Assembly: GCA_951406725.2 (NCBI GenBank)
Contig: OX597830.1
Coordinates: 74,400,001 to 74,464,000 of the forward strand
DNA length: 64,000 nt
Direction: 5' to 3'
DNA from: Octopus vulgaris
Lineage: Eukaryota
The position numbers and the translations under genes were made by a program. Position 1 is the stretch's first letter. Every line of letters begins with the position of its first letter. Under the pieces are notes generated by a model. The model made no database searches. It saw only the letters and a list, made by a program, of their open reading frames with translations, and was not told the DNA's origin. Of this stretch, positions 10,454 through 62,449 are shown in pieces.

Positions 10454-12777
10454 ACATATTTCCGTGTACCTTCAAAATTTATTCTTCGATTATCTCTATT
10501 TGGAAAATATGAACTGGAAATATTAAATTAAAATTCCCTCCAGTCTTGCAAAATTAACAAAAGTCTTCCAAAATTTGTATGTCAGTGACACAAAATATAC
10601 CATTTGTAAACATATCCCTTCGTAACTGCCAATTGTATAGTTTGTCTCCATAAAAGATGGATGTATTAAGACATTTCAAACATTCATTCTATTCTACAAT
10701 TTAATAATGAACAATAATGCAGTAGCGATGTTCACCTAAATAGCCAATTAATCAGTAATTGCCCAATTAACTCCATATTTACTTTGCTGCATAAATTTAA
10801 AGCTAATAGCAAACTTCATAACATGTGAAATGTTCTAGATAAACAGAAGGGGGAGATTTTTGTAATGAGATATCCTCTCTTCCATTACTTATTATTTCAC
10901 CATCGTACAAAGATATCCTATATATTCATTATTGTTCTAACTGTCGAGATGCACTCATAAATTATATTTAACCAAAATATTACACGACCTAGCTACGTGC
11001 AACTACTCAGAGCCTTATAAATTTTATATATTTTGCACATTTCATATTGTATGTAACATCCTTATTACATAGTCAATCACATTCTACATTTGTATATTAG
11101 TGCATGATACAAAAGCAATTTTTTTTTACCATCTGAATTGAAGTTAAAATATGCTTGAGAAAGATTTGAACATGTAAACGAGTTTCACTGTGGATTGTAG
11201 TGGAAAACATGTCTCCATTAAGAGAAGGTGTTAGATACCGTTAAGCGAGAAATTTTTCTCCACGACAAATGGCAGCGAAAATCTTTTACAAGTTCAAATG
11301 TATCACAAGCAATTTTGAACGGGTCTTCAGTTTGCATTCTTGCCATCCCTGCTCGACACACTCTTTGTATAATAAATCAGGTTTTACAACCGCTTTTTTT
11401 TTTTTTACCTGTGGACCATTTTAATTCCTATTGTACTCGAATGGACCTTCATAGCTATTCAATATTTGAAATATTCTATTATAATTTTGTAAGTAGAGAT
11501 TTTTAGGAATTGCATAAAATATTTGGTGTATTGTGAAAATATAACCAACGTATTGCATATAAATTCTAACAACAAAATCTTATATCAACCCACAACAGCC
11601 TTAGTGACCCCGGTCGAGAAACAGTGGTATAAACTCAGCCATCATTTAGCATCTGAGGAACCTCCATCCCAATAGAAATACAATGGATATACACCTAGTT
11701 ATTTTATATTAGCTCAAAAATAAAGCCAATTGTACGTTTTTATGTAGCAAGATTTGGGAACTGAAAGAAAACAGAATCAAATTTAGCCTTAAATGGGATA
11801 TTATAAGGAAATCACAGCCTTATAGAGATACGGTGCGAGCTGTGCTCTATGGAATCTTATGAAATTATTAAGTATAGGGACAAGAGCAACCTGGTTAATA
11901 ATACAGTAGACCTAAGTGTATCATGCGTACATAGGGTCACCCGTACATTTAAATATTTTCGAAATTAGCATTTGTAGTAGCTGCACTTGAACCTGGATAA
12001 GAGACATTAATTTTAGTGTCGTATACTATGTGTACTTAACCCCTAGTCGTGTTGTTGCCTTTATTGAACTCATAAAGCAAAATATGCCGAATGTGCTTTT
12101 TGTCACCTCCATTATAGCTTTGAAAAACTAACAGTTAAAATCGAACTGCACTCTTCAAAACTTGTACTAAGAAGAAGGCTTTTAGAGCAAGTTGATGCAG
12201 AAAGTTTATCCTGTCCCTTCCGGTTTTTAGTTCAGGCAACTGAAAAAAACGCATTATTTATGGGATGACCCAATATATGTTAATATTTGGACATTGGGTA
12301 TATATCTATCAGTATGACGATTAAAGCACATTCACCGTTTGGGCTAACTGATGTCATCTACAGTTACGATATAATTTTCACTGGATCTACGTGACGAAAC
12401 CTGCAGTGTTTGTTGAATTTATAGCTAATGACCCTTTTCGAAACCATCGTCGCGCTGAATATAGATTCGTAGTAGATCCACCTTTTGTTTCCTGAATCAA
12501 TTATGTGTGTGTGTACGTGTGTGCGTACGTGTGTGTGTATGTGTGTGTATGATTTTATCCTATAAAATCCTTAGCCATACCTACACTGAATCTTCTGTTC
12601 TCCATCTAATCATTATATCTGGTAACCTATATAACATGGTATTTGCATTACTGTACATATTTTCTACATTTTACGAAAGACCTTTCTGTAAAAGTAAACT
12701 TTAGTAAACAACACATTAAACATTTCAACCTAAATTACGCATGTAATATTCATACTAGCACCAACTGTGTTTTATAT

Positions 12778-13178
12778 TCTTTTCTACTCTAGGCACAATG
12801 TCCGAAATTTTAGGGGGAGGGGACCAGTGGATTAGATCGATCCCAGTACGCAACTGGTACTTAATTTATCGACTCCGAAAGAATGAAAGGCAAAGTCGAC
12901 CTCGGCGGATTTTGAACTCAGAACGTAAAGACAGACGAAATACCTATTTCTTTACTACCCACAAGGGGCTAAACACAGAGAGGACAAACAAGGACAGACA
13001 AACGGATTAAGTCGCTTATATCGACCCCACTGCGTAACTGGTACTTAATTTATCGACCCCGAAAGGATGAAAGGCAAAGTCGACCTCGGCAGAATTTGAA
13101 CGCAGAACGTAACGGCAGACGAAATACGGCAACGTATTTTGCCCGGCGTGCTAACGTTTCTGCCAGCTCGCCGCCTTA
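12778..13178 (-). mobile_element. tRNA-derived SINE (family 2, Meta-like central domain), dimer
   Basis: Reverse complement: ggcggcgagctggcagaa head, gttcaaattc B-box, gcctttcatcctttcggggtcgataaattaagtaccag core repeated twice, with two different tails. Confidence 0.9.
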
Positions 13179-13941
13179 AATGTGTTTTATATTACGTTAT
13201 ATTCTTCACAGTCAGTACTTAATCTAACAAAATTTCTTACTATGTCAAACACATTCGCTCTTTATTTGTATGATCCTTGTGTAAGAATCTATCGCCACTT
13301 TTATTTATATTCAGTATCAACTGCGATGCATTAGTTCCTCCTACTCTAAATCATAGAGGACCTCACAATGACATTGAATCAAACATATACTTTTAATATA
13401 ATAAGTTAGAATGAATTAACAAGGCTTTTTCACACATTTGTTTCTTCTATTCTCAAATAATTACGTTTTCCTATATCTTTTCATATTCCCAGCAGTTTTT
13501 CTTTCAACGTTATTCTGCATATTATAGCACAATACATATATGATAATTCCATAATTCACTTTATTAGAAAACCCAAAAACTATTTAATTCTATTATACCC
13601 TTATAATTATAGATATCAACTTGATTTTGTAGGCCTATTCATATTGTAATTTCTTTATTTGTTGTGGCTAACAATCATCGAATTATCGATATACGCAAAA
13701 AAAAAAAAAAAACTAATTGGAAAATTGGAGAAATGTAATCAGAGATGAAAAATTATTTCTATTAAATCTGAAAAAGAAGCACAACATCAATAAATTTGGA
13801 TTTAGGACACAAAAAGACCCACCTTGTATCAAGTGATTTAAATATTTTGAAATAGTATACAGGCGCACTCACCAGACATGAAAATATAAGGCAACAAAGA
13901 AATCATTTACAGCTTGAACTAATCACAGATATATACCCAAC

Positions 13942-19156: not shown

Positions 19157-19733
19157 GCGGCGAGTTGGCAGAAACGTTTGCATGCCTTGCGAAATGCTTA
19201 GCGGTATTTCGTCTGCCGTTACGTTCTGAGTTCAAATTCCGCCGAGGTCGACGTTACCTTTCATCTTTTCTGGGTCGATAAATTAAGTATTAGTTACGCA
19301 CTGGGGTCGATGTAATCGACTTAATCCGTTTGTCTGTTCTTGTTTGTCTCTTCTGTGTGTAGCCCCTTGTGGGTAATAAAAAATAGGTATTTCGTCTGCC
19401 GCTACGTTCTGGGTTCAAGTTCCGCCGGGGTCGCCTTTGCCTTTCATCCTTTCGGGGTCGATTAAATAAGTATTAGTCACGCACTGGGGTCGATATAATC
19501 GACTTAATCCGTTTGTCTGTCCTTGTTTGTCCTCTCTGTGTTTAGCCCCTCGTGGGTAGTAAAGAAATAGGTATTTCGTCTGTCTTTACCTTCTAAGATC
19601 AAATTCCTCCGAGGTCGACTACGCCTTTCATCCTGTCCAGGTCGATAAATTAAGAACCAGTTTTATACTGGGGTCGATCTAATCGACTGGCCCCCTCCCA
19701 CAAAATTTCGGACCTTGTGCCTAGCGTAGAAAT
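19157..19733 (+). mobile_element. SINE family 2, trimer (one head, three bodies)
   Basis: Body restarts at ggtatttcgtctg at ~19203, ~19386 and ~19570. The first two units end in the LINE-like tail ...aaagaaata; the third ends in ggccccctcccacaaaatttcggaccttgtgcctagcgtagaaa. Confidence 0.9.
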
Positions 19734-20126: not shown

Positions 20127-20460
20127 TTAGGGTTAGGGTTAGTTAGGGTTAGGTTTAGTGGTGGGAGGAAGGGCGTCTTTTTTTTCTTCAGAAATGTAAA
20201 TAAACACAATCTGTTTCTTAAACGAGGGACATATTCATACGGCACAGAATGTTCTTTACCTCAATGGACGTCAGTGATTGGTTGAAATTGCAGAAATTGA
20301 AGAAAAAAAGACAACAAATATCTTACAAACTATAGAATTTTCTCAATAAAGCCAAGAGAAAAAGATGTTTAATAAACACATTCTACCAGTATACGAAGTT
20401 TAAAATTGTTTAGTTACCTAGAAATTATGTTAAGGACTGCCGTTCAAACCGAAAAGATCC
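20127..20460 (-). mobile_element. Partial copy of the GGATC-TIR MITE (same family as 23327-23734) with TTAGGG repeats
   Basis: Reverse-complement match to 23327-23655. Ends ctgccgttcaaaccgaaaagatcc. Confidence 0.85.
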
Positions 20461-21703
20461 ACAACTTTTTATAGTGAGGTTTTGATTATAGTGAGAGGAA
20501 CCTCAAGCTGTACCCATCTACCGGTACCAATCGGTTATGGAATTGGTTGCTCGGTATACACAGTTCCCCTCACTTATCAGCTCTTCGTTAGAATGTATTT
20601 TAGCATTTTGTCCCACTAAACAAGCCTTTCACTCTCAGACCTTAGCCTAGAACTAGTTTCTAAGAATCATTTAATTTCTATCAACAGGGCGTATAAATCC
20701 TTAATAGAATAGCTGTCCTTTATCTTTTTCTAGAAGAACACAATATATAACAGTGTTAAGAAACGAAACAAAAAACTCTTCAATTGCTCACTAGGCTCTA
20801 GACTTGAACGTATGACCATATATCTATTTATTATGTATGTCTTTCTGTATGTTTGTATGTGTGTATGTGTGTGCATGTATGTGTGTGACATAAAACTCTA
20901 TTTGAATCTATGTGTACGTGTACATAGATATACATACACACACAACTATGCGTGCATATATGTAAATAAAACTATACATTATATAGTGTGTATCTTTAGT
21001 CATTCATGCAAACCTAATCATACACACGTGAGTTTGTGCGTGTGTATATGTGCGTTCGTGTGATTGTGAGCATGCGTGCGTGCGTGTGAGCAAACCGGTG
21101 TGTCGCGGTTCATTGACCATATAACTATGTTTGAATTTTACTTTTAATTTTTTTCTTAATTAGTATTATAATTTCAGTTCTGTTAATGTTGTGTTGCGTT
21201 TTTTTTTTCCTTGTAGGTGGGTGAAAATTAGTAATTAAGACTTTGACATTAAATAATTATTTACTGTCTTTTGGAAACATTAATTGTAAGAGACAACATC
21301 CAAAACTAATGGACCTTTTAATTCAAGATAAATGCACCGAATATCTTAAAAATTAATATTTATAGGTTTTTATATTGTCTCCAGTAGCCAGGTGATGGGG
21401 AAGTGTGTCGGGGAGTGGTACTAGTCATCGCTGTGTGTTCAAATACCACCGATGTCCACTTAGTACTTCAAATTTTCCAGGGTCAAAAGAATGACAAAGA
21501 ACATGATTTATTTTCTTCCTTGCAAGCCTTCATCACTTGATTAACAAACACTAAGTACAATATATTTATGAAGAAATGCAAAATTGGTTTACCTGCTGCC
21601 TTTTTGGGGGGGGGAAGATTTTCTGAGCTTGCTACAGATTTGTTCGCCATACCAGTAATTGATACTCTAGACGTAAAAGAATAGAACGAGTACAGTATAT
21701 ATA

Positions 21704-22120
21704 TATTTCTTTATTGCCCACAAGGGGCTAAACATAGAGGGGACAAACAAGGACAGACAAACAGATTAAGTCGATTACATTGACCCCCAGTGCGAAACTG
21801 GTACTTTATTTATCGACCCCGAAAGGATGAAAGGCAAAATTGACCTCGGCGGAATTTGAACTCAGAACGTAACGACAGACGAAATACCTATTTCTTTATT
21901 ACCCACAAGGGGCTAAACACAGAGCGGACAAACAAGGACAGACATAGGTATTAAGTCGATTACATCGACCCCAGTGCGTAACTGGTACTTAATTTATCGA
22001 CCCCGAAAGGATGAAAGGCAAAGTTGACTTCGGCAGAATTTGAACTCAGAACGTAACGACAGACGAAATACCGCTATGCATTTCGCCCGGCGCGCTAACG
22101 TGTCTGCCTGCTCGCCGCCT
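21704..22120 (-). mobile_element. SINE family 2, dimer with ~13 bp TSD
   Basis: Two bodies, both with the LINE-like tail. Flanked by agtacagt(a/g)tata at ~21689 and ~22124. Confidence 0.9.
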
Positions 22121-22454
22121 TCAAGTACAGTGTATAATGTTTTCTGACACTCCTACAATTTCACCAAAACCGTTCCTCTGCAGTGGTAATCATTTTGTTA
22201 ATCACGAAATAATACAAAAGTAAAAGTGAGGTTGGCGAAATTTGAACACAATACGTAGAGTCGGAACAAATATCCTTTCTTTTTTTGGCGCAAGACCAGC
22301 ACTTTTGAACGGTGGTGGGGAAGTCGATTACATGAAACCAAGTGATCAACTGGTACTTATTTTATCGAACTCAAAAAGGGAGAAAGTTAAAATCGACCTC
22401 AGTTAAAGTCAGAAGAACACACAACCAAAGTCAGAAGAAATTTTTTTAAAAAAT

Positions 22455-24184: not shown

Positions 24185-24400
24185 TAAGGCGGTGAGGTGG
24201 CATAACCATAAGCACAACGAGCAAAATACCTTGCGGCATTTCGTCCCTTTTTCACATTCTGAGTTCAAATGCTTCCGTGGTTGACTTTGCCTTTCAGTAT
24301 TTCAGGGTCCATAAAATAAGTCCTCGTCAATTACTGGGAATCGATGTATTTGAATTTCCTCGCCCCTCAAAAACTATTGGCTGTGCGAAGATTTGAAATT
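24185..24400 (+). mobile_element. Degenerate SINE family 2 monomer
   Basis: aaggcggtgaggtggca..ttctgagttcaaat..gactttgcctttca. Confidence 0.7.
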
Positions 24401-24474
24401 ATTATTGTCACGATATATTCATAAATTACAAGGTCACTCTCTCGCACCGTTTCTCTCCCCGACTCAGTCTCACC

Positions 24475-24919: not shown

Positions 24920-25140
24920 CCTATTTCTTTACAAGGGGCTACACACAGAGAGGACAAACAGACAAACGTATTAAATCGATTACATCGAGCCCAGTGCGTA
25001 ACTGGTACTTATTTAATCGACCTCGAAAGGATGAAAGGCAAAGTCAACCTCGGCGGGATTTGAATTGAGAACGTAGCGGCAGACGAAATACCGCTAAGCA
25101 TTTCGCTCAGCGTGCTAACGTTTCTGCCAGCTCGCCGCCT
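24920..25140 (-). mobile_element. SINE family 2 monomer
   Basis: Near-identical to the other family-2 copies. Confidence 0.9.
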
Positions 25141-26307: not shown

Positions 26308-26693
26308 TCTCTTTTACTCTTTTACTTGTTTCAGTCATTTGACTGCGGCCATGCTGGAGCACCGCCTTAAATCGAGCAACTCGACCCCGTGACTTATTCT
26401 TTGTAAGCCCAGTACTTATTCCATCGGTCTCTTTTGCCGAACCGCTAAGTGACGGGAACATAAACACACCAGCATCGGTTGTCAAGCAATGCTAGGGGGA
26501 CAAACACAAACATACACGCACACATATATATACATATATACGACAGGCTTCTTTCAGCTTCCGTCTACCAAATCCACTCACAGGGCTTTGGTCGGCCCGA
26601 GGCTATAGTAGAAGACACTTGCCCAAGGTGCCACGCAGTGGGACTGAACCCGAAACCATGTGGTTGGTAAACAAGCTACTTACCACACAGCCA
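26308..26693 (-). mobile_element. SINE family 3 (tRNA head, CORE-like ggcaccttgggcaagtg, internal microsatellite); resembles the octopus OR2-type SINE
   Basis: Full-length match to 38210-38641 and 51426-51840. The family name is from memory and unverified. Confidence 0.88.
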
Positions 26694-27400
26694 CAAGAAT
26701 ATTAATGATAAGGATTGCATGGTTGCATAGCATTACCTTTAATTATTTAATATATCTACCGCCCTACATAGGCCAATACGTATTTCAGTTTGCACTGATT
26801 AGTAACCGTTGCAATTGCAAACTTACTATATAACCGGTGCAGTTTCTCCATGGTCTTTATTTGATACCCTGGATATGACTTATAAAAAATTTATTTTATC
26901 TACTCTGCGTTGTACAATGTAGAGTTGTCCGTTAAGTTAGACGCGAAAAATCTCCATTTCAAGATCTTAGTAGATAATTATTTTTAGCCCGTCGTTTTAA
27001 AAGCTTCTACAGTTGAAATGACATTCATATATACTTAGCAAATATGAATGTCCTCGTGTGCAAGTATCTCAGTGCTGATTCCTGTTTAGAATTTATTACA
27101 TTAACCTTGGATGTAAAAATTCGGTAAAATTCTCCTAAACACGTTACAACGATAGGTTCCAAGTCTGTATGGATTTGCTGAGCAAATAAACTCCCATTTA
27201 ATAGTATAGTGCTGGTTACTGTCCTTAAAAGACCTGATTAACTTGCCGAGGCTCGTTTGGGACCCTTTATCATTGACTTTAAATTAAATGAACTCAAATG
27301 ATTTACCAGCCTCATGTTGAAAATTAATGGTGTCCCACCGATGTAAATTAATTCCATACCCCCAGATGTAACTTTACATCTATATATTACATTTTTAGTC

Positions 27401-27625
27401 GGCGAACTGGCAGAAACGTTAGCACGCCGGGCGAAATGCGTAGCCGTATTTCGTCTGCCGTTACGTTCAGGGTTCAAATTCCGCCGAGGTCGACTTTGCC
27501 TTTCATCTTTTCGGGGTCGATAAATTAAGTACCAATTATGCACTGGAGTCGATGTAATCGACTTAATCCGTCTGTCTGTCCTTGTTTGTCCACTCTGTGT
27601 TTAGCCCCTGTGGGGTAGTAAAGAA
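27401..27625 (+). mobile_element. SINE family 2 monomer with 19 bp flanking direct repeat (TSD)
   Basis: atatattacatttttagtc at 27382-27400 and 27626-27644. Confidence 0.93.
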
Positions 27626-27649
27626 ATATATTACATTTTTAGTCACTTA

Positions 27650-30487: not shown

Positions 30488-33400
30488 AAACTTCCCGAAA
30501 TTTTCGACGAAACTTCCTGGACACTAGAAAATCCACGGAACGTCCCATAAAATTTTCGACGAAACATCCCGGAAATCAGAAATTCCTTGGAACTCCCCAT
30601 GAAGTTTTCGACGAAACTTTCCGGAAGTCAGAACATCCTCGGGACTTCCCCCTGAAATTTGCGACGAAACTTCCCGGGAGCTAAAAATCATTGGAATTTC
30701 ATATCAAGTTTTCGACGAAACTTCTCGGAAGTCAGAAAAACATCGGAACCTCCCATGAAGTTTTCGACGAAACATCCCGGAAGCTAGAAAATCACCGGAA
30801 TTTCCTATGACGTTTTCGATAAAACTTCCCGGAAGTCAGAAAATCATCAGAACTTCCCATGAAGATTTCGACGACATTTTCCGGAAGTCAGAACATCCTC
30901 GGGACTTCCCCTGAAATTTTCGACGAATATTCCCGGAAGCTAGAAAATCATTGGAATTTCCTATGAAATTTTCGACGAAACTTCCCGGAAATCAGAAAAT
31001 CATCACAACTTCCCATGAATTTTCCGAAGAAACTTTCCGGAAGTCAGAACATCTTCGGGATTTCCCCTGAATTTTCGACGAAACTTCCTGGAAGCTACAA
31101 AATCATCGGAATTTCCAAGTAAATTTCCGACGAGACTTCCCGGAAGTCAGAAATTCCTCGGAATTTCCCATGAAGTTTCGACGAAACTTCCCGGAATTCA
31201 GAAAAGCTCGGAACATCACGTGAAGTTTTCGACGAAACTTCACCGAAGTCACAAAATCATCGGAACTCCCCATGAAGTTTCAACGAAACTTTCCGGAAGT
31301 CAAAACATCCTCGGAATTACCCCTGAAATTTTCGACGAAACTTCACGAAAGCTAGAAAATCATTGGATTTTCCTATGAAGTTTTCGTTGAAACATCCCAG
31401 GAGTCAGAAAATCATCGGAACTTCCCATGAAGTTTTCGACGAAAATTCCCGGAAGCTACATGGTGGACATGAAGATTTCGACGAAAATTCCCGCAAGCTA
31501 GAAAATTATCGGAATTTCCAATAAAATTTTCGACGAAACTTCACAGAAGCTATAAAATCATTGGAATTTCCTATGAAGTTTTCGATGAGACTTCCCGGAA
31601 GTCAGGAAACCATCGGAACTTCCCATGAAGTTTCGACGAAAACTCTGGCAAGCTAGAAAATCATCGGGATTTGCAATGTAGTTTTCGACGAAATTTACCG
31701 GAAGCTAGAAAATCATTTGAATTTCCTTTGAAGTTTTCGACGAAACTTTCCGTAATTCAGAACATCCTCGGGAATTCCCCTGAAATTTTTGACGAAACTT
31801 TACGGATTCCTTGCAACTTCCCATGAAGTTTTCGACGAAACTTACCGGAAGTCAGAAAATCATCGGGACTTCCCATGAATTTTTCGACGAAACTTTTCTA
31901 AAGGACGAAAATCCTTAATTTCGACGAAACTTACCGGAAGTAAGAAAATCGTCGGAATTTCCCATGAAATTTTCGACGAAAGTTTTCGAAAGTGAGAAAA
32001 TCCTCGGAATTTCCATGAAGTTTTCGACGAAATTTCCCGGAAGTCAGAAAATTGCCTTTGAAGTTTTCGACCAAACATTCCGGAATTCAGAACATCCTCG
32101 GGATTTCACCTGAAATTTTCGACGAAACTTCACGGAAGCTAGAAAATCATTGGAATTTCCAAAGAAATTTTGAATGATACTTCCCGGAAATCAGAAATTC
32201 CTTGCAACTTCCTATGAAGTCTTCGACGAAACTTACCGGAAGTCAGAAAATCATCGGGGCTTCCCATGAATTTTCGACGAAACTTTTCGAAAGTAAGAAA
32301 ATCCTTAATTTCGACGAAACTTACCGGAAGTCAGAAAATAATCGGGACTTCCCATGAATTTTCGACGAAACTTTTCGAAAATCAGAAAATCCTCGGAATT
32401 TCCGTGAAGGTTTCGACGAAACTTTTCGGAAGCTACAAAATTTCCTATGAAGTTTTCGACGAAATTTCACGGAAGTGGGAAAACCATTGGAACTCCCCAT
32501 TAATTTTTCGACGAAACTTCCCGGAAGTCAAGAATTCCTCTCTATTTCCGATGAGATTTTCAACGAAACTTCCTCGGAATTTGCAATGTAGTTTTCGACG
32601 AAACTTACCGGAAGCTAGATAATCATTGGAATTTCCGTTGAAGATTTCGACGAAACTTTCCGAAAGATCAGAATATCCTCGGGATTTCCCCTGAAATTTT
32701 GGACGAAACTCATTGGAATGAAGTTTTCGACGAAATTTCCCGGAAGTCAGAAAATCATCGGAACTTCCCATGAATTTTTGCACGAAACTTCCCGGAAGTC
32801 AGAAAATTCTCGGAACTTCACATGAAGATTTCGACGAAACTTACCGGAGGTCAGAAAATCATCGGGACTTCCCATGAATTTTCGACGAAACTTTTCGAAA
32901 GTAAGGAAATCATCGCAATTTCCATGAAGTGTTCGACGAAACTTCTCGGAAGCTAGAAAATCATTGGGATTTCCTATGAAGTTTTCGACGAAACTTACCA
33001 GAATCGTCGGAATTTCCCATGAATTTTTCGACGAAAGTTTTCGAAAGTGAGAAAATGCTTGGAATTTCCATAAAGTTTTCGACGAAATATCCCGGAATTC
33101 AGAAAATCATGGGAATTGCCCTTGAAGTTTTCGACGAAACTTTCCGGAATTCAGAACATCCTCGGGGTTCCCCTGAAATTTTCGATGAAACTTCACGGAA
33201 GCTAGATAATCATTTTAATTTCCTATGAAATTTTCAACGAAACTTCCCGGAAATCAGAAATTCCACGCAACTACCCATGTAATTTTCAACGAAACTTCCC
33301 GAAAGATAGAAAATCATTTGAATTTCCTTTGAAGTTTTCGACGAAACTTTCCGTAATTCAGAACATCCTCGGGATTTCCCCTGAAATTTTTGACGAAACT

Positions 33401-34830
33401 TCACGGATTCCTTGCAACTTCCCATGAAGTTTTCGACGAAACTTACCGGAAGTCAGAAAATCATCGGGACTCCCCATGAATTTTTCGACGAAACTTTTCT
33501 AAAAGAAGAAAATCCTTAATTTCGACGAAACCTACCGGAAGTAAGAAAATATCGGAATTTCCCATGAATTTTTCGACGAAAGTTTTCGAAAGTGAGAAAA
33601 TCCTCGGAATTTCCATGAAGTTTTCGACGAAATTTCCCGGAAGTCAGAAAATCATGGGAATTGCCTTTGAAGTTTTCGACCAAACTTTCCGGAATTCAGA
33701 ACATCCTCGGGATTTCACCTGAAATTCTCGACGAAACTTCACGGAAGCTAGAAAATCATTGGAATTTCCAAAGAAATTTTGAACGATACTTCCCGGAAAT
33801 CAGAAATTCCTTGCAACTTCCTATGAAGTCTTCGACGAAACTTACCTGAAGTCAGAAAATCATCGGGACTTCCCATGAATTTTCGACGAAACTTTTCGAA
33901 AGTAAGAAAATCCTTAATTTCGACGAAACTTACCGGAAGTCAGAAAATCGTCGGGATTTCACATGAATTTTTGGACGAAACATTTCGAAAGTGAGAAAAT
34001 CCTCGGAATTTCCATGAAGATTTCGACGAAATTTCCCCGAAGTCACAAAATCATCGGAATTCCCCATGAAGTTTTCGACGAAACTTTCCGGAAGTAAGAA
34101 AATCATGGGAATTGCCTTTGAAGTTTTCGACCAAACTTTCCGGAATTCAGAACATCCTCGGGATTTCACCTGAAATTCTCGACGAAACTTCACGGAAGCT
34201 AGAAAATCATTGGAATTTCCAAAGAAATTTTGAACGATACTTCCCGGAAATCAGAAATTCCTTGCAACTTCCTATGAAGTCTTCGACGAAACTTACCTGA
34301 AGTCAGAAAATCATCGGGACTTCCCATGAATTTTCGACGAAACTTTTCGAAATTAAGAAAATCCTTAATTTCGACGAAACTTACCGGAAGTCAGAAAATC
34401 GTCGGGATTTCACATGAATTTTTGGACGAAACATTTCGAAAGTGAGAAAATCCTCGGAATTTCCATGAAGATTTCGACGAAATTTCCCCGAAGTCACAAA
34501 ATCATCGGAATTCCCCATGAAGTTTTCGACGAAACTTTCCGGAAGTAAGAACATCCTCCGGATTTCCCCTGAAATTTTGGACGAAACTTCACGGAAGCTA
34601 GAAAATCATTGGAATTTCCTATGAAATGTTCAACGAAACTTCCCGGAATCAGAAATTCTTCGCAACTTCCCATTTCATTTTCGACGAAACTTGCCGGAAG
34701 CTAGAAAATCCTCGGAATTCCCCATGAAACTTCCCGGAAGTCAGGAAATCATCGGAACTTCCCATGAAGTTTTCGACGAAAACTTCCGCAAGCTAGAAAA
34801 TCATCGGGATTTCCTATGAAGTTTTCGACG
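30488..34830. repeat. Satellite array, ~52 bp unit (consensus ~gaagttttcgacgaaacttcccggaagtcagaaaatcatcggaacttcccat) with higher-order repeats
   Basis: Directly visible tandem units, roughly 80-90 of them. Identical 62-aa ORFs at 33661 and 34112 show a 451 bp period. A block at ~31721 recurs at ~33322. Confidence 0.95.
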
Positions 34831-35059: not shown

Positions 35060-36170
35060 TATGCATGGGGCTGCGATTGTGACTGAGAATATGGCCTTAC
35101 GCCTGTTGAAACAAAAGTGTCGTGGATAGATTTTGCGATCATGCCCACGAAGACTTTTATCCGGCGCAGGGGATGAAAATCTTCGCAAATGGTAGGCTTA
35201 CATGTCCGTTGAAGATGCTGAAAGTCGGATGAGATCTCCCTGCATCCTCCGTTGTTTGAGTGAAAGCAATGACAGCCGTCAGAGATGTTCCTCTTATGCA
35301 AGTTTAGACAAGCCCTCGCCCATTCGAGTGGCCAAATGCTGAACCCATTCCAGGTGCTGAATGTCTTTCTGGAGATATGGGTTTGCGGTTTTGATGTAAT
35401 ATTCGAGGATGGGTCGAACTAGAGTGATATATACAGGCCAAAAGACGTCCATTGAAAGGTTAGCAAAGGATCGGTGGATGAGGAAAAGATTCCTTCTGGC
35501 TTTGTTCGAATCCTCGATACCCTGCCGTGGTGGTTTGAAAATAGTATCGATCATTATGCTGAGATCCTTTTCTTCAGTGACCATCTTAAGATGTTGATGT
35601 GGCCAATGGTCAAGGGAGAGTTTGGAGGTGAACCTATTGGCAAATGGCTGCATTTTGAGGCGTTCAAGTTCAGATTCTATTCTTCCGCCCAATTCCAAGC
35701 TCGGTTCAGCGACAATTGGATTATGTAGTATTGATTCCTAGGTGAGACTAGTTTGACGTCGTCTGCAAATAGAAGAACTCTTCCATCAAGAAAATATGAC
35801 AGGTCGTTGATATAGAGAAGGAAAAGTATTGGCCGTAGCACCGACCTCTGGGGAACGCCGTTGCATGCATTCGTCTCCGCTGAGAGATCTCCATTTATCT
35901 GCACCCAAAAGGTTCGATAGCTCAGGAAGGAAGAAATCCACAAAGTCAACAATGGATGAATCTTGAATGCTCGAAGTTTGCACAAGAGAAGTCAGTGATT
36001 AACAGAGTCAAATGCCTTTGCGAAGTCCAAAAATACCACGCCCACCAAGTCTTTTTCATCCATGGTCCTTATAATCCATTCTTCAAGAAGGAGAAGATTT
36101 GTTAGGCAAAATCTTCAGGGTAGAAATCCATGCTGCGAGTCGGATATTTCTTTGTACCATATACAGATAA
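35060..36170 (-). mobile_element. Second CR1-like LINE (RT core through C-terminus), decayed
   Basis: QHGFLP, LDFAKAFDSVNH, GVPQRSVLRPILFLLYINDL..LLFADDVKL, LVRPILEY, and C-terminal RRMQGDLI..LRGHDRK. Confidence 0.9.
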
Positions 36171-40809: not shown

Positions 40810-40810
40810 T

Positions 40811-41288
40811 ATTTCTTTATTAGTCACACAGGGCTGCACACAGACGGGACAAATTACAAGGTAGAGCTTTTCTTTTTGGGGATGGAAAAAGGGGTATGGT
40901 TTTCGATCAAAAGGGATCGTAAAAGGAAAGAAAGAGGAAAGCCAAAAAAGGGAGGATAAAAATAAAAGGAAAAAGAAAAAAATCGATCATTAGGGATCGT
41001 TATCACAGAAATGTCAAGATAAAGTGTAAAGGGGAGGACAAGTGAGATTTACCCGTGGAAAAAAAGCCTACGGAAAAGACCACGGTAACCTCGGCCAATG
41101 AAGTCACATGTTATATTTTTTTTACAAATAAGCAACTCTGTATTAATTGTTACGGTTCATAGGATCATAGTCAAGGTGGCTTCGTCATTCATACGTGCCA
41201 TCCTTGCTACATTCACCCATCTTTTTTTAAGACATTCACTAGACAAAACTTGCCTCTCTACTCTCAAGTGATACTTGAAGAAGTTGAT
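40811..41288 (-). mobile_element. Tx1/L1-like LINE 3' end, copy 1, in (GATA)n
   Basis: Minus strand RVERQVLSSECLKKRWVNVARMARMNDEATLTMIL*, then a T-rich 3' UTR ending aataaagaaat followed by (TATC)n. Confidence 0.7.
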
Positions 41289-41311
41289 GATAGATAGATA
41301 GATAGATAGAC

Positions 41312-41428
<117 letters not shown>

Positions 41429-41429
41429 T

Positions 41430-42021
<592 letters not shown>

Positions 42022-61386: not shown

Positions 61387-61618
61387 AAGGCGGCGAGCTG
61401 ACAGAAACGTTAGCACGCTGGACGAAATGCCTAGCGGTATTCTGGCTGCCGTTACGTTCTGAGTTCAAATTCCGCCGAGGTCGACTTTGCCTTTCACCCT
61501 TTCGGGGTCGATAAATTAAGTACCAGTTGCGCACTGGGGTCGATCTAATCGACTTAATCCCTTTGTCTGTCATTGTTTGACCCCCTCTGTGTTTAACCCC
61601 TTGTAGGCAATAAAGAAA
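61387..61618 (+). mobile_element. SINE family 2 monomer with 14 bp TSD
   Basis: taagatgcgccttg at 61373-61386 and 61619-61632. Confidence 0.93.
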
Positions 61619-62449
61619 TAAGATGCGCCTTGCTATGCGTCTTGTCGCTCGGTCAGTAGGAATGTTATCTTGCACAAGGTGCTAAAAGATTTGGATACAG
61701 TTGATCAAGTGTATCCGTTCCTTTACTACGGCGATAGGACAAAAACCGATGATTGGTTTTCTTAATCATTCAGATTGTATAAACCAAGTACCAGTTATAT
61801 ATTGGCTGATTTAATCGATTGCACCTACTCCCTGAAATGCTTTCGGTTTGATTCGCTGTGGTTTTGTCAGTTACCAAATTCTTACTTGCAACATAATATA
61901 TTTTTTGGTGATTTCAAATTAAAGCTTGCTCTAAAATTCCCGTAAGTAATATCTATTATAATATGTACAATACATTTTGACACAGTCGTTCAGTCTTTCA
62001 AAGAAAGATGTAGAGAAAGAGGCTGAGACCTTTCTAGGCTATTGTCGTCGGCAACAATAAAAGCAATACAGGGTATTACAAACATCAGGAGAATGTCTGC
62101 CTCTATGGCGCCAGACTAACAGTGTGTGGGAGTGGGGTGGAGGGAAATTTTGAGAGGGAAAGATTGAGAGCAGAAAAAGAATGAGAAAGAAGAAGAGAGA
62201 TAGACGGAGAGGGAGAGAAGGAAGGAGAGAGAGGAAGAGAGAAAAGGAGACTGATATGTAGTCTGAGAAAATGTATGTGAATTTGCTAATATGTGGTTGT
62301 GAGTATATATTTGTGCGTGTGTATATATATGTATATATACATAGTTATATATATACAAATATATATTTGTGCGTGTGTATATATATGTATATATACAAAG
62401 ATATATATACATTGTGTAAATATATATACAAATATATATATATATATAT

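Follow-up and report, generated by a model that had tools for sequence, protein, structure and literature searches.

How does a short interspersed nuclear element (SINE) come to occur as monomers, dimers and trimers whose units are always joined at the same base? The question is raised by a trimer in a 64,000-nucleotide stretch of the Octopus vulgaris genome (contig OX597830.1, positions 74,400,001 to 74,464,000; hereafter the window). The SINE is ~230 bp long: a head of 46 nt and a core of 119 nt are followed by a tail, which is either T1, resembling that of a long interspersed nuclear element (LINE), or one of the alternatives T2a, T2b and T3, whose age rises in that order. We regard it as somewhat probable that a young, T1-tailed SINE was joined to older members of its family at position 47 by many independent events, some of them visible as insertions into genomic copies, and likely via target-primed reverse transcription with pairing between RNA and target at both ends. 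Within this reading, the fixed junction, the independent partners, the younger unit upstream, the insertions with a doubled head and the short motif tied to the tail variant are directly supported.

The trimer (19157..19733, plus strand) starts with its only head, which is putatively tRNA-like (element positions 1-46; 19157..19202). Unit 1 (19203..19385) comprises positions 47-229, that is, core and T1 tail, and its core differs by 5.0% from the consensus of all units. Unit 2 (19386..19569), also of T1 type and joined at position 47, has a core 9.2% from the consensus and 10.9% from that of unit 1, with which it has one rare TT variant in common. Unit 3 (19570..19733), joined at the same position, has a T2a-subfamily core and a T2 tail (T2a); its core is 14.3% from the all-unit consensus and ~10% from its own subfamily. 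Because core divergence thus climbs from the first to the last unit, the trimer is consistent with independent partners arranged by age.

All six copies listed in an earlier note on this DNA, as monomers, dimers and a trimer, are real, the elements at 12778, 21704 and 24920 lying on the minus strand. The T1-T2a dimer (12781..13174, minus; junction 12945/12944) is enclosed as a whole in a 13-bp duplication (3' copy 12766..12778, 5' copy 13181-13193); its last unit, like that of the trimer, ends in T2a, which is the deviating tail that had been remarked upon in both multimers. The T1-T1 dimer (21704..22118, minus; junction 21889/21888) has a 13-bp outer duplication with one mismatch (21689-21701 and 22124-22136). 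The T1 monomers are found at 24920..25138 (minus), with a duplication in unique DNA that starts with GGT; at 27400..27628 (plus), with an 18-bp duplication, a TAT-type flank and the head variant 42G/47C; and at 61390..61620 (plus), with a C-variant tail, an AGA-type flank and a 14-bp duplication. An old T3-subfamily monomer (24189..24410, plus), its core 19.5% from the all-unit consensus, is the kind of copy that serves as target.

At all four junctions in the window, the end of a T1 tail is followed by GGTATTTCGTC, which is head position 47. The constant junction point claimed earlier is thus confirmed, with one head followed by 184-bp units; the added units correspond to positions 47-229, repeat with a period of 183-184 bp and each lack positions 1-46. 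In the genome, which is 2.8 Gb large and microsatellite-rich, an exact 20-nt junction sequence has 39,269 matches, against 0 for a reversed control, so the junction is not a product of chance. Single-headed junctions total about 40,000 in exact form and perhaps 100,000 overall, as extrapolated from 13 per 380 kb. In the loci examined, a T1 tail stands before 184 internal units, in exact register with few exceptions, and a T2 tail before one, at a joint other than position 47. Multimers account for 15 of 31 unselected T1-headed elements, with arrays of up to six units. The element is short, dispersed, non-coding and present in high copy number, as the ~230 bp and the 39,269 junctions illustrate; 380 kb of random genome sequence contain 45 headed full-start cores, and target-site duplications surround 14/36 T1 monomers (0.7 in a shuffled control). 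Motifs resembling A and B boxes can be made out by eye in the head, which is putatively derived from a tRNA; ARAGORN and Rfam searches of the SINE detected no tRNA.

The invariant junction and the existence of duplications around whole elements would suit a model in which the multimers descend by re-amplification from one or a few multimeric masters of single origin, the arrays then growing by unequal crossing over. The downstream units argue otherwise. From 587 junctions into old-type units, 70 were sampled, 64 of them with a full core. Among these 64 downstream units, which carry on average 5.6 rare variants each, none of the 2016 pairs has at least four in common, nor does any of 990 pairs in an unselected set. 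Because no pair of the 2016 has more than three rare variants in common, each junction has essentially its own partner, and the multimers go back to many independent events, not to one ancestor. Within T1-T1 dimers (n = 38), the two units lie 0.110 apart; random pairs lie 0.111 apart, and no dimer falls below 0.04. Last units are drawn from all four subfamilies, T1, T2a, T2b and T3, and are older than those upstream. In counts that exclude loci chosen for a doubled head, the downstream unit is the more diverged one in 27/31 T2a, 12/12 T2b and 2/2 T3 cases. The same is true of 54 of the 70 sampled old-type junctions. Unselected T1-T1 dimers follow the age order over the full unit in 23/35 cases (p = 0.011) but not in the core alone (19 versus 14, p = 0.31). 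T2b and T3 monomers are all (44/44) diverged by at least 9%, while the upstream units of multimers average ~4%.

Other observations favour a master. The units of a dimer are weakly associated at the same site, for 3 of the 18 sites (uncorrected p 0.02-0.04), although the strongest cross-site linkage (p = 0.001) lies inside the permutation range. At locus L027, the element breaks off 29 nt inside unit 2, where its duplication follows, which documents that multimeric RNA was copied. In arrays of at least three units, moreover, 20/61 neighbours are less than 4% apart; because these near-identical neighbours have rare variants in common along the whole unit, the data point to partial growth of such arrays by local duplication. 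The outcome of asking whether units cluster by position or are mixed, as the earlier note had proposed, is therefore divided: they are mixed and ordered by age, except for the near-identical neighbours in the longer arrays. The lack of sister copies refutes re-amplification of a master as the main route, a conclusion to which nested copies with target-private duplications also contribute. It survives only as a secondary process, and we consider it most improbable as the general explanation.

Insertion into genomic copies of the family can be recognized where the head is doubled. A pattern for the position 47 site followed by a new head has 273 matches; in the first 100 of these, 53 have a match length of 34-38, equivalent to an upstream copy of ~14-18 nt. 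At 16 of 30 doubled-head loci, the upstream copy fits the 3' flank, which follows the tail of the insert, better than the corresponding sequence of the insert does, by a crude rule that on inspection errs both ways and so tempers the result; of the other 14, six scored as own copy, two tied and six were unclear. Bases private to the target often occur on both sides of the insert (for instance at loci L031, L040, L044, L053 and L060). Since the doubled heads carry target-specific duplications, 12-19 bp in length, insertion at head position 47 happens at the DNA level, at least in part. For a control motif with 85 matches, none of 10 loci behaved as insertions at that motif, most being 5' partial duplications and the rest unclear. 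Together with the mixed, age-ordered units and the lack of sisters, these nested copies support the idea, put forward from the sequence of the window, that the SINE inserts into its own family's head; as we find neither a single master nor a lack of independent insertions, that part of the proposal holds. At L062, L063, L064, L068, L069 and L050, a single outer duplication encloses an element that is itself partially duplicated at its 5' end, often restarting after CCTTT; these cases likely represent restarts of the reverse transcriptase.

The single-headed majority would have formed either by insertion in place with annealing at both ends or by a template jump between RNAs. For the former, a mechanism can be outlined. 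A Tx1-like LINE protein would nick the DNA and bind the T1 tail; the SINE RNA, continuing a few bases into GGUAUU, would pair with the nicked strand; and the new cDNA would anneal within the head of the old copy, with which it is homologous. The product would be a single and often chimeric head, or a doubled one where annealing fails. Arrays of at least three units would be due in part to later local duplication, and some multimers would likely move again as whole units. In the alternative, the reverse transcriptase, acting at a fresh genomic target, would begin with the 3' end of whichever family RNA is at hand, copy it as far back as position 47 and there switch templates to a T1 RNA, again at the 3' end, insertion in place being confined to the minor doubled-head class.

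The heads themselves bear on this choice. The variant 47C is present in 29/106 first units of multimers and 12/46 monomers but in only 2/153 internal units, so the young donor contributes the head's 3' portion together with the start of unit 1; a template jump would likewise have the head go with unit 1. In multimers of a T1 unit with an old-type unit (T1-old multimers), positions 3-12 of the head are old-like (0.159 versus 0.099 in T1 monomers, p = 0.006) and positions 35-46 young-like (0.081 versus 0.181 in old monomers, p = 3e-6). The old-type 18T is intermediate in frequency, at 17/35 in these heads versus 16/73 in T1 monomers (p = 0.007) and 58/70 at the old end. Doubled heads occur in 7/65 headed old-type junctions and in 0/87 young-ended multimers (p = 0.002). 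Chimeric heads, and doubled heads that are commoner on old partners, fit a cDNA that anneals to the old head and fails to do so more often on diverged targets. A template jump needs a second switch for the old-like 5' ends, does not explain the higher rate of doubled heads with an old partner and requires that old T2b and T3 transcripts were still being copied in the T1 era; the doubled-head cases also prove use of the same base at the DNA level. A seamless insertion in which the head of the target would be preserved in full, along with its first 16 nt, was considered too and discarded, old-type bases in the first 16 being found in only 3/48 first units versus 26/45 last units.

Several observations weigh against formation in place. 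Visible doubled-head copies number an estimated 400-700, about 1% of the GGT insertions in unique DNA, and 1.3% of GGTA sites lie at position 47, so this nesting does not exceed what would be expected from the short motif, and the large excess sits in the single-headed junctions. Outer duplications of T1-old multimers are well kept (9/14 detectable at 13-14 of 14, versus 6/19 for old monomers; p = 0.06), and as they look young, they suggest that many of these multimers did not form in place but arrived at their present sites as complete units; in a smaller set, the age of the outer duplications did not separate the groups. Donor-only 42G is present in 15/40 single heads over old units, some heads over old units are wholly young (L309), and the multimeric RNA copied at L027 makes re-mobilisation of some multimers likely. 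Young duplications, even around old last units, and L027 keep a template jump at fresh sites in consideration. It would further predict the absence of sister copies and agree with the frequency of whole-element duplications, which is similar around multimers (12/42 and 12/31) and monomers (14/36); position 47 is also the start of the 3' arm of a predicted strong hairpin. On balance we judge the jump rather unlikely as the main route. The orthologous sites in public contigs revealed no empty or monomer allele, in a search swamped by repeat copies; the L309 junction is common to two related organisms, the most distant one having no coverage of the locus.

Returning to joining at both ends through pairing, what selects position 47? 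The 33 T1 ends in 380 kb of random DNA comprise 13 at position 47, one at position 14, seven before GGT in unique DNA and 12 others. Family sequence is therefore joined in 14/33, locally duplicated units included, above the 20% of copies flanked by the target repeat that Kojima requires for target specificity. Aligned to GGTATT, the 15 target sites of the G-start class agree at 12, 11, 12, 12, 9 and 9 of 15 before falling to background, figures that count for less since positions 0-2 are partly selected by the definition of the class and a SINE target is included among the 15; upstream of the site, the same 15 exhibit no base preference. The preference is for a short motif, approximately GGTATT, which is also used in unique DNA. 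Position 47 is thus not the exclusive target it had been taken for: in unique DNA, the same tail variant is also inserted in front of GGT.

Which site is used can be predicted from the tail variant. T-variant tails are joined 219 times at position 47 and twice at position 14 (loci selected for the junction inflate the former count), while the C-variant is joined 18 times at a second self-site, position 14 (L271-L290), and eight times at 47, and is also found with AGA flanks. Nesting at position 14 has 71 pattern matches, several of the 20 loci examined having a matching 3' junction, and tail-to-14 joints are present in public contigs of four other runs. Some T2a tails are also followed by head sequence from about position 14.

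How the bases after the tail could come to be in the RNA is suggested by the unit consensus, which is without a T4 run, so that read-through by RNA polymerase III past the unit end appears possible. TATTT, which follows the junction, has been described as a polymerase III terminator in mammalian SINEs (PMC8466645). A transcript terminating there would include roughly six bases matching the targets. These bases might act as a heritable RNA guide: they would choose the landing site, position 47 for one tail variant and position 14 for the other, and homology over the full length would let a new copy splice seamlessly into an old one and rejuvenate its head, with no LINE specialised for the site. 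We offer this only tentatively and think it more doubtful than not. Direct evidence of templating by the RNA is weak, which counts against the proposed pairing of RNA and target: at duplication mismatches, 3' copies follow the RNA at five, 5' copies at two and neither at two.

A different determinant of the site would be a Tx1-clade endonuclease specific for GGTATT, a second LINE setting position 14 and RNA pairing being incidental. In a stretch of 44 nt, the T1 tail has 77-82% identity with the 3' terminus of an endonuclease-reverse transcriptase LINE, the exact partner LINE not having been found in non-exhaustive protein and pattern searches. In the window, a Tx1-like LINE whose tail is similar to T1 is represented by a 3' fragment inserted in (TATC)n at 41429..41910 (minus) and by a second, tandem 3' fragment at 40810..41294 (minus). 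Full copies encode an open reading frame 2 (ORF2) protein of 1152 amino acids with PF03372, PF00078 and PF13966, for which the best PDB match is human L1 ORF2 (E 2e-54). The element has the ORF1 and the ORF2 with APE endonuclease, reverse transcriptase and zinc finger that make up a Tx1 architecture, and on that basis we take it to be Tx1-like; an atlas look-up supplied no clade name. Its 39 tail ends listed from 30 loci all precede TATCT or a one-base variant, save three. This LINE (L091-L122) has no poly(A), many of its copies retain an open 1152-residue ORF2, and fragments of related families are stacked in the same microsatellite. A second Tx1-like lineage (L211-L240), with open frames of up to 1145 amino acids, has its 3' end in front of (ATT)n-type repeats at most of the 30 loci examined; six matches in tandem with ~5.87-kb spacing at G000:C4:93804801-93834448 may, judging by scores, belong to it. 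Site-specific Tx1-like LINEs with fixed 3' ends therefore exist in this genome, their specificity being for microsatellites. Both have T1-like tails (before TATCT and (ATT)n, respectively), and Tx1 families that target transposons and carry SINE passengers have been published (PMC4494074), which makes an endonuclease of this kind conceivable.

The site itself, however, has yielded no such LINE. Of 47 loci with a LINE-type tail motif at position 47, 30 were inspected: 28 are SINE variants, one is an ATT-type LINE beside a SINE and one is unclear. A strict pattern of low sensitivity for a LINE at position 47 gave 112 matches, mostly indel variants and no LINE. Protein searches for the partner returned the TATC- and ATT-targeting lineages only, among 150 scored of 12,725 and 22,372 candidates and without a genome-wide search for T1 tails lacking the SINE core. 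The partner LINE expected by the earlier note to insert at this sequence was thus not found, in searches that are non-exhaustive and could miss other tails. As the missing upstream base preference also disagrees with it, we view an endonuclease that by itself sets the site as improbable. A derivation of the T2 tail from the LINE at L127 was withdrawn, the best 30 matches having mostly a T1-like tail before (ATT)n. A more distant reverse transcriptase fragment, 30% identical to the Tx1-like ORF2, is located at 35800-36153 (minus) of the window.

The octopus SINE is possibly related to the octopus tRNA-derived SINEs OR1/OR2 and to SINEs with Deu and Nin domains, which it seems to resemble in a shared head and core with alternative tails and in a Nin-like core. 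OR1 is listed as a CORE-SINE (PMC4824008), and tRNA-Deu SINEs and L1-Tx1 are listed for an octopus (PMC13282606). The searched part of the PMC4824008 supplement holds no OR1/OR2 consensus, and joining to the own head is unmentioned in the sections covered of PMC13282606, PMC4758252 and PMC4824008. Self-targeting of the head by a SINE did not turn up in a literature search, whose coverage excluded Repbase reports and the majority of subscription journals.

The closest published case is that of SINEU-1/2/3 and Tx1-Mar of crocodilians (Kojima 2015, PMC4494074). SINEU is also thought to be moved by Tx1, prefers a target inside a repeat, has two preferred regions and forms tandems by sequential insertion. 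Its target, in contrast, is another transposon, Mariner-N4_AMi, rather than the head of its own family; its tandems consist of whole elements around the duplication, whereas the octopus products are mostly single-headed; and its site is shared with LINEs, while non-exhaustive searches found no LINE at the octopus site (PMC4494074). In R2 with 3' and 5' homology, most junctions are seamless 'anneal' junctions and a minority are duplicated joins (PMC11371274), and 3' pairing of RNA and target has been proposed for SART1Bm and R1Bm (PMC7265360). These systems, including the R2-based PRINT, resemble our proposal in that 3' bases of the RNA pair with the nicked target and 5' annealing of the cDNA is seamless; they differ in being autonomous, endonuclease-specified or engineered, and aimed at ribosomal DNA or telomeres (PMC11371274, PMC7265360). 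In the octopus SINE, the element would itself supply the homology, and its pairing is deduced from genomic footprints only.

Head-to-tail multimers of the mammalian SINEs B2, Dip and Ves and SINE-derived satellites are comparable in that many copies are multimeric and arrays consist of SINE parts, but those multimers are built of full-length units, and the choice between tail insertion and a dimeric template is left open for them (PMC8466645, PMC10702118). The added octopus units, on the contrary, all lack positions 1-46 and join at one base. Nor do the octopus multimers have the position-specific units of equal age that characterize an Alu-type master dimer. Retrozymes are ribozyme-driven tandem retroelements with a self-cleaving ribozyme in each unit. 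No Rfam ribozyme family was matched in the SINE at E up to 10, which leaves room for undescribed ribozymes; this result and the unlike units of dimers led us to reject a ribozyme or rolling-circle origin of the tandems.

If joining occurs as we propose, tens of thousands of natural events weigh RNA-DNA pairing against endonuclease specificity in fixing the site of a retrotransposon, a question that also underlies R2-based gene insertion, and two tail variants with two sites amount to a ready-made swap experiment. Tandem arrays could then arise out of dispersed SINEs, and a young family could overwrite old promoters without adding new loci. Composite elements would also distort SINE copy counts and ages in this genome.

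Small satellites made of head or head-core pieces of the SINE are found at G000:C6:27514188-27514662 (72 bp), C8:16138599-16139189 (135 bp), C11:81438136-81438776 (121 bp) and C15:52495169-52495522 (23 bp period). Other repeats in the window are a 4.3-kb minisatellite (30489-34830) with a 52-bp unit and higher-order periods, a short interstitial TTAGGG run (20127-20159) and a second short repeat (26309-26694), which is more abundant by contig depth.
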